Part shown: piece after piece, positions 1,163 through 27,312 of the stretch
Position numbering within the stretch: the first letter of the stretch is position 1
Layout of the letters: each line of letters opens with the position of its first letter
Source: Psammoneis japonica
Lineage: Eukaryota
Reading direction: 5' to 3'
Assembly: GCA_008632985.1 (NCBI GenBank)
Contig: QPGO01000144.1
Span: forward strand, 124,001 to 188,000
Length of the DNA: 64,000 bases
The notes under the pieces: model-generated
Told to the model about the DNA's origin: nothing
The model's input: only the letters and a program-made list of their open reading frames with translations
Database searches by the model: none
Position numbers and translations under genes: made by a program

Positions 1163-1960
1163 GATGCGTTCCAGCCCCAGGTGGGAGCTCGCAGCACTGA
1201 CGTGTGACAACAATGATTTTTGTCATCCGTCGCATGTTTCGCACGTAGATTTCTGCGTGTGACATTTAAAAAAAATTGTCCAGACTCGCCATTTTGCGAA
1301 GCCCCAGACGTTTCACACAACAAATTTGTAGAAACAACAATGCGCCAGCCACATTCTTCAATGTCTGAAGAATGTAACTGGCCAAGTAAAAAATGATGTG
1401 CTTCAATCATGTGCGAGTTTGTGCGTTCGCAAAATTGCCTCATTTTCTGTTGGCGATCATTGACGGGTTCCAGTCCCAGGTGGGACTTTTTGTGACATTG
1501 GGCCCGTGGAATTCTGCGCGCGAGCTCCGCAGTGAAATTGTTGAGCAATGGACACATGAATGATTGCCAACAGAAAAAGAGGCAATTTTTGCGAACGTGT
1601 CTCCTCCTCCACACTTGAAGCACATTCTTTGCAGCATGCCCGGGTGTGTTCTTTAGACACCAAAGAACACACCCAGCGCATTTTTGTTGATGTGGGTGCA
1701 GATGACAGAAAGCCTTTGGCTTCGCAAAACAGGCAGTGTGGAGCAATTTTTTGTGATGGAACACGTAGAAATGCACGTGTGAAACATGCGACGGGTGACA
1801 AAAAAACAATCATGTCACAGCTCAGCAGTGCGAGGTCCCACCCAGAGCTGGAACACATCCATTGACATTTTGGTTGCCGTGTGATTTCACTGCGGAGCTC
1901 GCATGTAGAAGTCTGCGGGCCCAATGTCACACGGATTCCCACCTGCATCTGGAACGCGTC
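1163..1960. mobile_element. Sola2-type non-autonomous TIR element (MITE), TpA-hypermutated, interrupted by a nested related MITE
   Basis: Termini GATGCGTTCCAG...CTGGAACGCGTC, 4-bp TSD CAGT at 1159-1162 and 1961-1964. Colinear (reverse complement) with the 395-bp element at 26918-27312 once 1462-1863 is removed. Confidence 0.9.
1462..1859. mobile_element. Nested MITE of the same TIR family
   Basis: Termini GACGGGTTCCAG...CTGGAACACATC, TSD CATT at 1458-1461 and 1860-1863. Internal similarity to 26918-27312 (e.g. gtgacattgggcccgt, gccaacagaaaa). Confidence 0.85.
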
Positions 1961-2410
1961 CAGTGTGGACGCCTCTCAAAATCCGACCATTCGATCTGTT
2001 TCGCGCTCCATGGATGGGCGGTGTGCCTTTCGATTTGGCCAGGCTCTTACATGGAAATGTGTGTGCACACATGCAGCTGCAAGATTCTAATGCTCATGCA
2101 ACAGGAATCATTCGAAAATGTCTCGTGGGTCATGATTGACATTTTGCATGAGGGAAAACACAAAATCGTGTGGAAATGTGCACAATGTCATACGAGAGAG
2201 TGATTGGAGCTAACAACTTTTCAGGAACTAAATTGAAATGCCATCTGATTGACGGTGTTGGCCTTCACCATGTGAATCAAAACAATCAAATGGGATTTCA
2301 ATTGATTTCCCGAGAAGTTGACATTCGTGTGTGGACGGATGGACAGACTGATAATGATTATCAGTGTGACCACTCAGTGGTTGGTGATTGCAGACTTTTT
2401 CGTGTCGGTC

Positions 2411-2461
2411 CGGCAGTCGGGCAGTCGGGCAGTCGGGGGGTCGGGCAGTCGGGCAGTCGGG
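2411..2461 (+). repeat. Short tandem repeat (GGGCAGTC)n, about 6 units
   Basis: cggcagtcgggcagtcgggcagtcggggggtcgggcagtcgggcagtcggg seen directly. Confidence 0.9.
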
Positions 2462-3294
2462 TTGTCCGTCTGAATTTGAAAGTGTGTCCCTCGGATTTTG
2501 GAACGGGATGGGTTGTTTAGTACAGATGAACTCTTCGGATTCGTAGAATGATCATTGAGGACATGAGAGGTCGTGGGGACATCCTAAAAAATCGATAAAT
2601 TCCCTACGACGGGTACGTGGCACGGTTTTTCAGGAGAGCTCGAAAGTTCTCAAAAATTGGGATTGCCGGCGTGGCATGTTGAAAAATGTATTCAGTTATA
2701 AGATTTATCGTGAATTCTACACGAAACAGTCATATTTGGGAAAACATATCGAACAATAAGTGAGTTTGTGCGATGCGCTATTATGGCGATAAATTGGAAA
2801 AAAAAAGAGTGTCCGTGCACCTCGCTACAGCCCCAAAAATGGCATGAGACATCAAATAATATAACGGTCATCCGCGTCACCGGTGCGGTGGCCACGCCAC
2901 TCAGCCGCCACAATACCGGCCCCGGCGGTAGGGCCCTACGTACGTACAGGCAATACAGCATGCAACGGCACACACCCACACCCACAAAGAAAGACAAGTG
3001 GTCAATGCTCCCCGCAGGCCTGGTTTTTAGTACTCTCGTACACAATTTCTACGTGATGACTCTCAGGACCCGAATGATTCCTATTGATCTTCAACGCTCA
3101 CAATAAATTTACACTGTGTAATAAAGCATTCGCTAAAAGATATAGTATATATAAGAGACATAATATAGGGCCCTAATTATAAAATCGCCGTTAAACTGAG
3201 TCACATGAGTCGCGAGTCGCCAAACTGAGAACTCGCCCATTTCCAATTTTTCTGTTTCGTTGCATGCTGCAACTCACACGATCCGCAAAACTCT

Positions 3295-24417: not shown

Positions 24418-26358
24418 TCAATTCACAAACCTATACACACGAACGGCACCCGAATCAATTCCATTGTCGGTATCCTCCAGGGGCGCCCCAATTCCCACCA
24501 CACTTCCATCGCCCGACAGCTTGGCGGGACTTCCAAACTGATCATCGGCCGCCCGTCCACTGAAACGTTCACCCCACTGCACCAATTCCCTGGTTTGACG
24601 ATTGTATTGAAAAATACCCGCTTGTCCCGCATTGGCTAAACCATTGACGGTCTTGTCGCGATTGCCGATGGCCAGAAGCGTGGCATTGGCATTAGTAGAC
24701 ACAGCTCCACCCTCGGATATCGTTCGTCCACGTTGTTCCCATGTAAACGTGGTGGGATCGTACTCGTATAGGAACACCCGATTGGAATCTCCCGCCACCA
24801 AGAAGAAACCATCCTCGTCCAAGGCGACGGAATCACCAAAATATTCTTCCACCAACTCTCCACTGATTGGAAATCCTAACGGTTCCCACATCGTGGAATT
24901 GAATTGAAATACAGTCACTTGACCGGATTGAATGCCATTGTCATCGTTGCGGGGTGCACCAATCGCGGCAATATTCCCCGCAGCATTTAAGGAGACAGTC
25001 CGACCAAATCGATCCCGTGCATTGGTCCCATTGACGACTTGACCGACCGCATCCCATACATTGGCACTTGCGTTGTAACGAAAGAATTGAACCATTCCCG
25101 GATGGACACCCTGAATACCAGCGTCGGAACCAATGGCAAGTAGACTACCATCCCGTGACAGTGTCACGGCCGAACCCAACCGACCACCCACCATGGTTCC
25201 GACAAAGTCACTGCCCAGTTGCAGCCATTGTTCTTGTTGAGCATTGTATTCAAAGACTTGTGCCAAACCGGCATTGTTACCTCCACGATCGTTATCACGA
25301 GCTCCAATGGCAAGAATCGTCCCATCACCACTCAACGACATGGATCGTCCAAACCGATCTCCAAACGCCTCTCCCACCAACTCTTGTCCCAACGGAATCC
25401 ATTCTTGTTCTTGTGAGTCAAATTCAAACACGGAAACGTACCCATTGCCAGAGGCAATTTGAATGGCGGAAACCGCCATGATGGTGCCATTGTGTGAAAA
25501 CTGGATACCACTGCCAAACAAATCTTCACGTGCACGACCGACCAATTGTTCTTGTCCGACGGGTTGCCATTCACCCTCCACGACAAACAAGGTTGGGGGT
25601 GGTGTCGGAAGGGGGGTTTGATTTTCTGGTGGTGGAGTAGGTGGTGGTGGTGCTTGAGGTGTGTTGTTGCTACTGCTACTGGTTGCCAGTGGAACAGCAA
25701 TAGCTACAGCTGCAACAATTACCAACAAGACAATTCCAAGATAGATATAATGCCTTGGAAAGCCTTGTTTGGTAGTCTCGTCTTGCTCTTCGGAATTATC
25801 GTAGGCTTCTTCTTCTTGTTGTTCCACTTCTTGACGTTGTGGTGGCGGTTGAACAAGTTCTACATGAGCCGTAGGAGCATTGATAACTAAATGATTCAAC
25901 TCCTCATTGTTGGGTTCATAGGTTCGTAAACTATGTTGCACGTTGCTATGATGAAACTCCGAAGAGTACTCGGTATGATCATCTTCATCCTCATGATGGG
26001 CAACATCACCACGTCGAATCGTTTGTCCTTGTCCTACAGCAAAGGCACCCACTTGAGAAACGTCTGCGTTCTGATCAATCATTTCTGTTTCGGGCATGTC
26101 GACGATATCATCATCCTCTTCTTCTTGATGTTGAGGAGGAGCTGCCTTCTTTTTACTACCCGCAAAGGATGTAGTGGCGCGATACTTTGGTATAGGTGGT
26201 GGTGCTTGTGCATAATTCTCGGGTTGCTTGGGTGCTGCTGCATGGTATGCGTCGTGCTGCTGCTTGCGTGTGCTGTTCCCACGACGATTACACATGTCAT
26301 CGTCGTCGTTATCCTTTTTGTTGTCATCAAAGGGTGCCTTATTGGAACGATTATTCAT
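24418..26358 (-). CDS. Type II membrane protein with FG-GAP-like beta-propeller repeats (intact paralog)
   Basis: 646-aa ORF with TM helix, Pro-rich stalk and FG.S.SLS.DG..LAIGA repeats. Confidence 0.9.
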   Translation of the reverse strand: MNNRSNKAPFDDNKKDNDDDDMCNRRGNSTRKQQHDAYHAAAPKQPENYAQAPPPIPKYRATTSFAGSKKKAAPPQHQEEEDDDIVDMPETEMIDQNADVSQVGAFAVGQGQTIRRGDVAHHEDEDDHTEYSSEFHHSNVQHSLRTYEPNNEELNHLVINAPTAHVELVQPPPQRQEVEQQEEEAYDNSEEQDETTKQGFPRHYIYLGIVLLVIVAAVAIAVPLATSSSSNNTPQAPPPPTPPPENQTPLPTPPPTLFVVEGEWQPVGQEQLVGRAREDLFGSGIQFSHNGTIMAVSAIQIASGNGYVSVFEFDSQEQEWIPLGQELVGEAFGDRFGRSMSLSGDGTILAIGARDNDRGGNNAGLAQVFEYNAQQEQWLQLGSDFVGTMVGGRLGSAVTLSRDGSLLAIGSDAGIQGVHPGMVQFFRYNASANVWDAVGQVVNGTNARDRFGRTVSLNAAGNIAAIGAPRNDDNGIQSGQVTVFQFNSTMWEPLGFPISGELVEEYFGDSVALDEDGFFLVAGDSNRVFLYEYDPTTFTWEQRGRTISEGGAVSTNANATLLAIGNRDKTVNGLANAGQAGIFQYNRQTRELVQWGERFSGRAADDQFGSPAKLSGDGSVVGIGAPLEDTDNGIDSGAVRVYRFVN

Positions 26359-26917
26359 GGTTAATGTTGTTCGTTGTTTTAATAACTAAAAAGTAACAAC
26401 AGAGAGATCCAACCCACCTGTTCTGCTGCAATGCTTCTTGAGCGTCGTCGATCGTCGATCCGCGATTTTGGGAGTCGTGAGAAATCGCCACTGTACGTAG
26501 AAAAATACGTAGAATGCTTGGTACATTTTCAGATTCAGTGGACGGAAAATCAAAAATCAAGGTCAAGGGATTCGCCAGCACTGTTTTCTTGAACTGACTG
26601 GGAGTGTGGCTCGTGTGCTACAAAAACTCGCAAAATGGAAAATGCTGGCATGACAAAGACAAAGAAAATGATGACTGGCAGTGCGCTGTGTGGTCTGGTG
26701 TGAGGTGGCATTTGAGACAGAGACCCCGTCAGAGGATTTGCACGCTGCACTCTGTTGTGTCGACAGAAATGACTTCAATGAGAACTCACCCTTCGCTGCA
26801 AAAAGGTTTTGACCAAGTCAAGCCATGTCATGCCAGCGATTGGGGATGAGCACCCAATGTGCCAGGACCCTGTGCTCTGACCTCTCTCCAACATTTTTGT
26901 GCTCTCATGCTCCTGCT

Positions 26918-27312
26918 GACGCGTTCCAGACGTGGGTGGGAATCCGTGTGACATTGGGCCCGTAGACTTCTACGTGCGAGCTCCGTAGTAAAATTATACG
27001 GTAATTAAAATGTCAATGATCGCCAACAGAAAATGAGGCAATTTTGCGAACGCACAAACTCGCACATGATTGAAGTACATCATTTTTTACTTAGCCAGTT
27101 ACATTCTTCAGACATTGAAGAATGTAACTGGCGCATTGTTGTTTCTATAAATTTGTTATATAAAACGTCTGGGGCTTCGCAAAACAGCGAGTCTGGACAA
27201 TTTTTTTTAATATCACACGTAGAAATCTACGTACGAAACATACGACGGATGATAAAAATTATTGTTGTCACACGTCAGTGCTACGAGCTCCCACCTGGGG
27301 CTGGAACGCGTC
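26918..27312. mobile_element. Young, largely unmutated Sola2-type MITE (395 bp)
   Basis: Perfect TIR GACGCGTTCCAG/CTGGAACGCGTC, TSD TGCT at 26914-26917 and 27313-27316; TA-rich although embedded in TA-free flanks. Confidence 0.92.

Follow-up and report, generated by a model that had tools for sequence, protein, structure and literature searches.

The 64,000-nucleotide stretch of Psammoneis japonica DNA analysed here (contig QPGO01000144.1, positions 124,001 to 188,000; referred to as the window and numbered from its first letter) contains four copies of a family of miniature inverted-repeat transposable elements (MITEs). Two of these copies had been compared in a first-pass annotation of the sequence, which attributed their differences to a repeat-directed A to G (T to C) mutator acting at TpA dinucleotides. 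The copies, the family to which they belong and the distribution of TpA along the window are described below.

MITE copies in the window

The youngest copy, c27k, is 395 bp long and lies on the reverse strand at 26918-27312. It has imperfect terminal inverted repeats (TIRs) of about 24 nt (26918-26941 and 27289-27312), a perfect 17-nt palindrome in its core (27094-27110 and 27116-27132) and a 4-bp target duplication, AGCA (26914-26917 and 27313-27316), and it keeps 27 TpA (observed/expected 0.82) and 26 CpG. The copy with which it was compared, c1k, is on the forward strand in two parts: 1163-1461, with 93.7% identity to c27k, and 1864-1960, where the same element resumes after a nested insertion. 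Its target duplication is CAGT (1159-1162 and 1961-1964). The coordinates originally assigned to both copies were correct. The insertion that splits c1k is an older MITE of a related subfamily on the reverse strand (1462-1863, made up of the element at 1462-1859 and a 4-bp CATT duplication at 1860-1863), which is about 70% identical to c27k and has 2 TpA in 402 bp. The fourth copy, c53k, is also older and on the reverse strand (53176-53560), with about 75% identity to c27k and a single TpA in 385 bp. Judged by the nested insertion that it carries, c1k is older than c27k. All four copies sit in blocks of DNA purged of TpA.

The TIRs and the 4-bp target duplications mark these copies as DNA transposons. 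The termini of the family read GAYGCGTTCCAG...CTGGAACGCGTC, the target duplications (CATT, CAGT and AGCA) are 4 bp long and are not TTAA, and copies of the family insert into one another. The 17-nt palindrome is perfect in c27k and in both diverged subfamily copies, where it has been kept by complementary changes on both arms, which suggests that the core hairpin matters for the element. Only in c1k is the hairpin broken, by T to C changes on one arm. Pattern scans of public metagenome contigs for more copies of the MITE returned no loci.

Differences between c27k and c1k

The alignment of c27k with c1k covers 395 positions and contains 30 differences, all of them transitions, together with one 1-base indel; the identity of the pair is 92-94%. 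Twenty-five of the 30 differences read A/T in c27k and G/C in c1k, and 21 of those 25 are at TpA. At the 27 TpA of c27k, c1k has TG at 11, CA at 10 and TA at only six, so that 21 of the 27 sites are changed, as against 3 of the 26 CpG (CG being kept at 23). These are exactly the numbers that the first-pass annotation had obtained by manual counting. Expressed per position, changes were found at 21/54 positions in TpA, 3/52 in CpG, 4/174 other A/T and 2/115 other G/C. The excess at TpA is significant both against all other positions (21/54 compared with 9/341; Fisher odds ratio 23.5, p = 9e-14) and against CpG when changed dinucleotides are compared (Fisher p = 1e-6). Its ratio of transitions to transversions, 30:0, also sets the pair apart from ordinary duplicated segments in the window, three of which gave 52:51, 22:19 and 124:150 (pooled p = 8e-10). 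Judged on these alignments, the phenomenon at the MITE pair is real.

The two possible products of a changed TpA are about equally frequent, the CA-type and TG-type outcomes being in the ratios 11:10, 12:11 and 8:12 in three copies. Runs tests on the three copies gave no significant coordination of CA and TG outcomes by strand (P = 0.34, 0.96 and 0.92), and in a diverged duplicate pair near 40.5 and 43.4 kb there are 10 runs in 25 CA/TG outcomes (by a hand estimate, about p = 0.08). Balanced outcomes without significant runs indicate that either strand is struck at random, site by site.

Direction of change

That TA is the ancestral state, as had been proposed at the outset, is supported by four independent polarisations which agree with each other: the mixture of outcomes among copies, an asymmetry in the family at large, the replacement of Tyr by Cys or His relative to protein homologues, and the one-sided loss of TpA from a pair of duplicates.

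The mixture test used the 14 TpA sites of c27k at which c1k, c53k and the nested copy all hold CA or TG. If the ancestor had TA, and each copy decayed independently, three quarters of such sites should show both CA and TG among the three copies; if the ancestor had CA or TG, none should. Nine of the 14 sites were mixed and five uniform, close to the 10.5 and 3.5 predicted by independent decay of TA. A CpG ancestor of the variable sites was also considered and is ruled out. None of the 81 cells (27 sites in three copies) has CG, while at the 26 true CpG sites of c27k the three other copies retain CG at 23, 7 and 14.

The family was then surveyed in contigs of one public run (X1), possibly the source sample of the window assembly itself, aligned to the c27k locus (26858-27372) at a likeness of at least 80%. 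A total of 1952 contig pieces were aligned; depth in X1 was 50-55 in the flanks of c27k, whereas bins that lay entirely within the MITE reached 35,794-562,885. The family is thus very abundant, at about 1000-fold depth, the summed depth being a rough guide to copy number. The sequence of c27k is close to the depth-majority sequence of the family. At 44 sites a variant had a share of at least 5%, and at 32 of these the variant was A to G or T to C relative to c27k. Thirty of the 32 were listed individually; 27 lie in TpA, though only 54 of the 228 A/T positions of c27k do so. Each of the listed variants is carried by 12-80 distinct contigs. Counted by dinucleotide, variation at a share of at least 5% was found at 22 of the 27 TpA, at one of 53 CpA/TpG sites and at two of the 26 CpG, and at six TpA of the family both the CA and the TG variants are present. 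Sites with TA thus vary towards CA or TG, and sites with CA or TG do not vary towards TA, an asymmetry that a RIP-like process (repeat-induced point mutation, a C to T process of fungi) acting on the copies cannot yield. A family consensus with TG or CA had been named in the first-pass annotation as evidence that would speak against ancestral TA; at 26 of the 30 listed sites the depth-majority is the A/T letter of c27k. In c1k there are alleles of low share in the family (0.09-0.14) without the high-share ones (0.29-0.57), which breaks the nesting expected from successive master-copy subfamilies. No single contig piece among those listed spans the whole MITE. At the c27k locus, purged flanks included, the X1 contigs match the window, and outside the MITE no difference is listed.

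A protein-level polarisation was available from an open reading frame (ORF) of 880 codons at 31262-33901 on the forward strand, designated P0241, which lies in TpA-poor DNA and belongs to a widespread family. It has 1260 database homologues at E <= 0.001, typically 1000-1350 amino acids long. No Pfam family scored above cut-off in P0241 or in 10 of the 11 homologues scanned, and a PHD finger was found in the other. Clusters of invariant Cys and an A-x-x-H-G-K...D motif are present in the family, and P0241 is probably a transposon-borne, uncharacterised transposase-like protein. When P0241 was aligned with 15 homologues, 14 columns had Tyr in at least 60% of them. Three of these columns are TGC (Cys) in the window and five are CAC or CAT (His); Tyr remains at only two, both of which lie downstream of 33367, where TpA persists. 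Columns used as controls largely retained their residues (Phe 5/5, Cys 16/16, Asn 6/6, Asp 14/16 and His 6/7), and the difference between the Tyr columns and the controls is significant (Fisher p = 6e-6). Some of the homologues likewise carry His or Cys at conserved Tyr columns. Upstream of P0241 there is a further ORF on the forward strand (30019-31377), and at the end of P0241 there is a tandem array (33905-34494) with a period of about 195 bp and copies about 77-80% alike.

TpA-purged blocks

The loss of TpA is not restricted to the MITEs. With a criterion of at most one TpA per 300 bp, purged blocks make up 22,749 of the 64,000 bp of the window (36%) and contain 70 TpA, with observed/expected values of 0.05 for TpA and 1.74 for CA/TG. 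The remaining 41,263 bp have values of 0.59 and 1.24, respectively, and a TpA frequency of about 4%. Sliding plots of TpA and CpG observed/expected had been proposed in the first-pass annotation, and the 1-kb TpA profile is bimodal rather than graded. The loss is regionally confined, and the blocks hold the four MITE copies and the transposon-like ORF.

The block at 1-1765 has 6 TpA (observed/expected 0.05, CA/TG 1.83, CpG 0.46). A longer one at 5851-12478 is poor in CpG as well, with 16 TpA in 6.6 kb (observed/expected 0.04, CA/TG 1.85, CpG 0.16). The block hosting c27k (26523-28094) is interrupted only by the MITE's own TpA and includes a run of N at 27674-27770. It is followed by a group of blocks spanning 28628-37526 (28628-32516, 32692-33367, 34290-34989 and 35139-37526), with TpA observed/expected of 0.05-0.07; CpG stands at 0.69-0.79 except in the last block of the group, where it is 0.16. 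Within the block at 40555-41947, the part at 40540-41480 is a hypermutated duplicate of 43405-44600, the alignment opening 15 bases before the block. The TpA profile also delimits the pair of blocks that contains c53k (52693-54003 and 54400-54982, spanning 52693-54982). The last block, 61867-64000, has 4 TpA and a CpG value of 0.17, with a run of N at 63272-63527; both N runs of the window therefore fall in purged blocks.

A search of Pfam did not identify the purged blocks, as none of 83 ORFs reached the cut-off. Long overlapping ORFs without a family match occur on both strands of the blocks, for example at 8222-9205, 30019-31377, 53334-54209 and 63141-63881. Where there is no TA there are no TAA or TAG stops, and long gene-like ORFs in the blocks are expected to be spurious for that reason. 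Non-coding DNA is not purged as such, since TpA observed/expected is 0.72 in an ORF-poor stretch of 3.3 kb (12479-15806) and 0.71 at 43385-44211.

Duplicates struck and spared

The segment at 43405-44600 is mostly without long ORFs and lies between two genes. It and 40540-41480 are diverged duplicates of equal age, only one of which has been struck: where the unmutated twin has 30 well-aligned TpA, the other has CA at 12, TG at 13 and TA at none, 26 of the 30 being in the stretch without long ORFs. Two pairs of gene duplicates, at 3315-4780 and 23839-22389 (1.5 kb, 92% identity) and at 15807-17846 and 26443-24413 (2 kb, 85% identity), have kept their TpA and show an ordinary spectrum of substitutions. 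In duplicated segments at 85-92% identity transversions are about as frequent as transitions, and 45 of the 198 transitions exchange TA with CA or TG. The flanks of c27k, on the other hand, are of single-copy depth in X1 and are purged. The spared gene duplicates, the one-sided loss from the other pair and the purged single-copy flanks together imply that duplication alone is not the trigger; the targeting looks regional and chromatin-like. The mutator first proposed was right as regards its confinement to TpA and its action on both strands. The claim that it is directed at repeats, in the sense of RIP, is not supported, given the two untouched gene duplicates, the purged single-copy flanks, the single struck twin and an unhit c27k in an abundant family.

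Old repeat pairs in purged blocks were also inspected for adjacent double transitions. Swaps between CA and TG accounted for 16/33, 4/4, 4/7, 5/8 and 7/15 of these in five pairs and for fewer in two further pairs (1/4 and 0/3), compared with 0/2, 3/7, 2/28 and 3/13 in gene duplicates. Such swaps would be the expected footprint of TA (and CG) sites resolved independently in the members of an old pair.

CpG loss and surviving TpA

CpG observed/expected is 0.16-0.79 in the purged blocks compared with 0.93 outside, and the loss is to TG or CA; in the struck duplicate at 40.5 kb, 24 of 40 aligned CpG have turned into one or the other. Since c1k has lost 3 of 26 CpG and 21 of 27 TpA, the loss of TpA must be the faster process. 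That both dinucleotides are lost together suggests methylation and a silenced chromatin state for the targeted blocks. CpG is nearly gone (observed/expected 0.02-0.25 per kb) from 5851-10000, 35139-37526, 61867-64000 and 1-1000 and stands at 0.65-0.8 in others, so two classes or ages of targeted DNA may be distinguished by CpG level.

Among 68 TpA surviving in purged blocks, CTAA/TTAG makes up 28% (7.6% of TpA elsewhere) and TTAA 19% (3.3% elsewhere), while ATAC/GTAT and ATAG/CTAT, which account for 15% and 11% of TpA elsewhere, are absent. This suggests that the mutator prefers A-T-A over T-T-A, in a small sample whose survivors may include newly created sites.

Other features of the window

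The two pairs of gene duplicates are parts of a large inverted segmental duplication (3315-5460 against 23839-22050, and 15807-17846 against 26443-24413), each arm of which has one trypsin-like gene and one FG-GAP-repeat gene; their spectra are ordinary. A divergent pair of paralogous genes with ricin-type lectin domains is found at 55689-57797 (reverse strand) and 58289-60409 (forward strand), with about 72% DNA identity. The long uninterrupted ORFs of the window suggest that the genome is intron-poor. No Rfam families or tRNAs were found in the window. Three proteins of the window had best matches of 63%, 53% and 44% identity in a collection of 5.8 billion proteins, and the only matches to named eukaryotes were to the diatom Fragilaria crotonensis (48%), the best of them, and to a ciliate transcriptome entry (43%).

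Discussion

We consider it highly probable that a targeted hypermutation of DNA, from TpA to TpG or CpA and with TA as the ancestral state, has taken place in this genome. Given such a process, an adenine deaminase has a slightly better than even chance of being the agent. It is favoured because the outcome is exclusively A to G, because of the rule of a 5' T, and because there is a precedent in Bigelowiella natans. The best explanation overall, and one that we regard as reasonably probable, is therefore TpA hypermutation of silenced segments by a DNA adenine deaminase. What the comparisons above show is that T:A pairs at 5'-TpA-3' of selected segments are converted to C:G, the top strand becoming TG or CA about equally often, until TpA is nearly gone. 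The segments struck are the MITE copies, the transposon-like gene, one member of a duplicate pair and their immediate surroundings, with neighbouring genes and ORF-poor spacers being spared. Of the two copies compared, c1k is a struck copy and c27k a recent one, almost identical to the consensus and still unhit. The agent is inferred: an enzyme with the preference for a 5' T that is typical of the TadA/ADAT2 type would be drawn to DNA that is silenced or foreign and would turn its adenine into hypoxanthine, to be read as G.

Several observations weigh against this interpretation. Four of the 25 changes from A/T to G/C are outside TpA. A plain outgroup test with the two distant MITE copies made c27k derived at 8 sites and c1k derived at 9, with 13 undecided, a split attributable to the loss of TpA from the distant copies themselves (1 and 2 TpA in about 400 bp). 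At five of the 27 TpA of c27k the three other copies have the same dinucleotide, either CA or TG, and in the family G/C is the depth-majority at 27157, 27233 and 27283, with about equal shares at 27002; a minority of changes probably ran from CA or TG to TA in the master lineage. The family frequencies were themselves obtained by summing k-mer depths over contigs with a likeness to c27k of at least 80%, a rough proxy which is biased towards c27k-like copies. An unmutated c27k in the middle of a purged block (26523-28094), with all 27 TpA intact, needs either youth, that is arrival after the purging, or episodic activity of the process. Finally, the analysis draws on differences that are already fixed, in a single window of 64 kb, and on contigs from a single sample. 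Some of the same sites would be expected if the polarity were reversed, with the TA-rich copy having arisen by RIP-like C to T changes at CpA (or by deamination of non-CpG 5-methylcytosine) in an ancestor with TG and CA, and having then been amplified. That reading accommodates the five uniform sites, the majority G at 27233 and 27283 (where c27k has the A of a TpA) and C at 27157, and the greater age of c1k with its nested insertion. It does not accommodate the presence of both CA and TG among the copies at 9 of the 14 informative sites, the six TpA with both variants set against one of 53 CpA/TpG sites that varies towards TA, or allele shares in c1k that violate the nesting of a master lineage. 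The Cys and His codons of the window correspond to Tyr in outside homologues, the old copies are free of TpA and not rich in it, and the hairpin broken by T to C in c1k is perfect in the three other copies. Reversed polarity is largely refuted on these comparisons, and we give it very little credence. An artefact of sequencing, base-calling or assembly, such as systematic A/G miscalls at a modified motif, might be suspected from the two N runs inside purged blocks and from X1 being possibly the assembly's own source. The X1 contigs reproduce the c27k locus and its flanks, however, G/C variants are on many distinct contigs, and the changes are coherent at the level of codons (Tyr to Cys or His) and in kilobase-scale blocks, which makes such an artefact hardly credible.

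Other processes might have removed TpA in the direction found. A modified base at TpA in silenced DNA, for example methylated adenine or the 5-hydroxymethyluracil (5hmU) that a TET/JBP enzyme produces, could mispair or be mis-repaired and give T:A to C:G. This would be in keeping with the loss of CpG from the same blocks (0.16-0.79 against 0.93), which resembles DNA-modified silenced chromatin, and with the fact that both self-complementary pyrimidine-purine steps finish as CA or TG. Dinoflagellate 5hmU favours TpA. The enzyme that forms it in dinoflagellates has reportedly been linked to transposon silencing (PMC11572971). However, a search of the window for part of the dinoflagellate spliced leader gave a match at chance level only. 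Opposite A, 5hmU is weakly mutagenic, and the known adenine methylation of eukaryotes is at ApT and not TpA; on balance a modified base is an unlikely cause, though it deserves consideration. A different view would dispense with targeting altogether: a genome-wide context bias would slowly strip TpA, the blocks being old unconstrained DNA, the genes keeping TpA by selection and c27k being merely young. The three older MITE copies are all TpA-poor, TpA loss does track apparent age, and the unpurged part of the window is itself poor in TpA (0.59) with an excess of CA/TG (1.24). Against a uniform bias, twins of equal age differ, with 43405-44211 keeping TpA (0.71) where its twin has lost all 26 aligned there. 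The ORF-poor stretch at 12479-15806 stands at 0.72, duplicates at 85-92% identity have about equal numbers of transversions and transitions where c1k and c27k have 30:0, and the 1-kb profile is bimodal rather than graded. We find an untargeted process improbable. Error-prone patch repair in silenced chromatin by a Y-family polymerase, with the WA to WG signature of Pol-eta, had been named as a candidate in the first-pass annotation. In its favour, T stands before the mutated A, which is one of the two contexts covered by WA, and changes fall on both strands. The fit is otherwise poor, as mutation at A:T of the Pol-eta type yields a large share of transversions and none was found among 30 differences; only 4 of 174 A/T positions outside TpA are changed, A after A being rarely altered, and the 5% of expected TpA left in the blocks would be hard to achieve by occasional repair patches. 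Such repair is a very improbable source of the pattern.

The TpA hypermutation of the window can be compared with several known systems. The resemblance to fungal RIP lies in a transition-only hypermutation which ruins transposons and leaves mosaic blocks beside normal genes. In RIP the change is C to T, mainly at CpA, and TpA is created, whereas in the window TpA is destroyed and old copies have 1-2 TpA per 400 bp. RIP also acts on duplicated sequence as such, whereas here the 1.5-kb and 2-kb gene duplicates have escaped and only one twin is struck. The description of the process as a mirror image of RIP is therefore apt as to direction, TpA being destroyed and CpA and TpG made, and fails as to a trigger by duplication. 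TadA/ADAT2-3 and ADAR enzymes also cause A to be read as G and prefer a 5' U or T; they act on RNA, whereas the changes in the window are heritable changes of DNA, in DNA transposons and in kilobase-scale blocks including single-copy flanks. Editing by ADAR through an RNA intermediate presupposes that the element is copied via RNA and that editing stays within the transcribed duplex; it may be less easily reconciled with elements that have TIRs and 4-bp duplications and with purging that extends over flanks of single-copy depth. Decay of CpG by deamination of 5-methylcytosine acts on another self-complementary pyrimidine-purine step, which also ends as TG or CA, and it operates in the same blocks. 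It cannot remove TpA, and it accounts for three of the 30 changes in c1k. It was rejected as an explanation of the finding, covering only 3 of the 26 CpG of c1k, and is present in the blocks as a second process.

A literature search for such a process found a single description, a preprint on the chlorarachniophyte alga Bigelowiella natans (Mettrop et al., bioRxiv 2026, 10.64898/2026.01.13.699255). In 15 mutation-accumulation lines of that organism, two regions of integrated viral DNA received 231 of the 302 mutations of the nuclear genome, and 230 of the 231 were A to G or T to C, all on TpA; the rate in these regions was about 1000-fold over background, in some lines only (10.64898/2026.01.13.699255). 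The preprint also describes clusters depleted in TpA and enriched in CpA and TpG, and an enrichment of transposon-type Pfam families among TpA-depleted coding sequences. Its authors propose deamination of adenine in DNA, with an ADAT2-like candidate, and their Discussion notes that TadA/ADAT2-3 and ADAR favour a 5' U or T next to the edited A (10.64898/2026.01.13.699255). The likeness to the window is close. In both, changes are almost exclusively A to G or T to C, TpA becomes TpG or CpA according to the strand, neighbouring DNA is unaffected, and the lasting footprint is a depletion of TpA with an enrichment of CpA and TpG. The activity in B. natans, moreover, appears to be non-constitutive.

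There are also differences, again by the preprint's account. The B. natans targets are inserts of nucleocytoplasmic large DNA viruses (NCLDV) and virophages, while in the window the process has struck MITE copies, a transposon-like ORF and a duplicated segment of the host. The footprint in the window is far deeper, with 36% at an observed/expected of 0.05, compared with 0.45 for the NCLDV region of B. natans and a 5% cut-off of 0.43 for its 1-kb windows. A further difference is that the blocks of the window have lost CpG as well. The TpA frequency is about 4% outside the purged blocks and 6.0% in B. natans, and the evidence here consists of fixed differences where that from B. natans consists of de novo mutation rates. 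The best identities of the window proteins (63%, 53% and 44%) imply that the window DNA is not from B. natans. What is seen in the window is thus a known process, of the B. natans type, acting in another organism at a much larger scale and with ordinary transposons among its targets. The first-pass annotation knew of no description of it in diatoms. The same process is now in print for B. natans, and the main text of that preprint contains no occurrence of diatoms or of 'other species' (10.64898/2026.01.13.699255).

In the window, the direction of change could be set from sequence alone, and over a third of the 64 kb is affected. Blocks nearly free of TA, with an excess of CA and TG, reading frames free of Tyr and spurious long ORFs, may serve as a genomic diagnostic of the process elsewhere. 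A young and very abundant MITE family would be a natural substrate in hunting for the enzyme, which could be a natural DNA adenine editor. To our knowledge, there is hardly any record outside fungi of a genome defended against mobile DNA by heritable hypermutation. It is possible, though we advance it only tentatively, that a TpA-specific defence by editing of DNA adenine is widespread in eukaryotes as a counterpart of RIP. In this genome it would then be the main fate of mobile or silenced DNA, acting jointly with cytosine methylation and erasing ATA-type sites first and TTAA and TTAG last. The signature in a second organism suggests that the process is not confined to one lineage, being either of greater age or of wider distribution.

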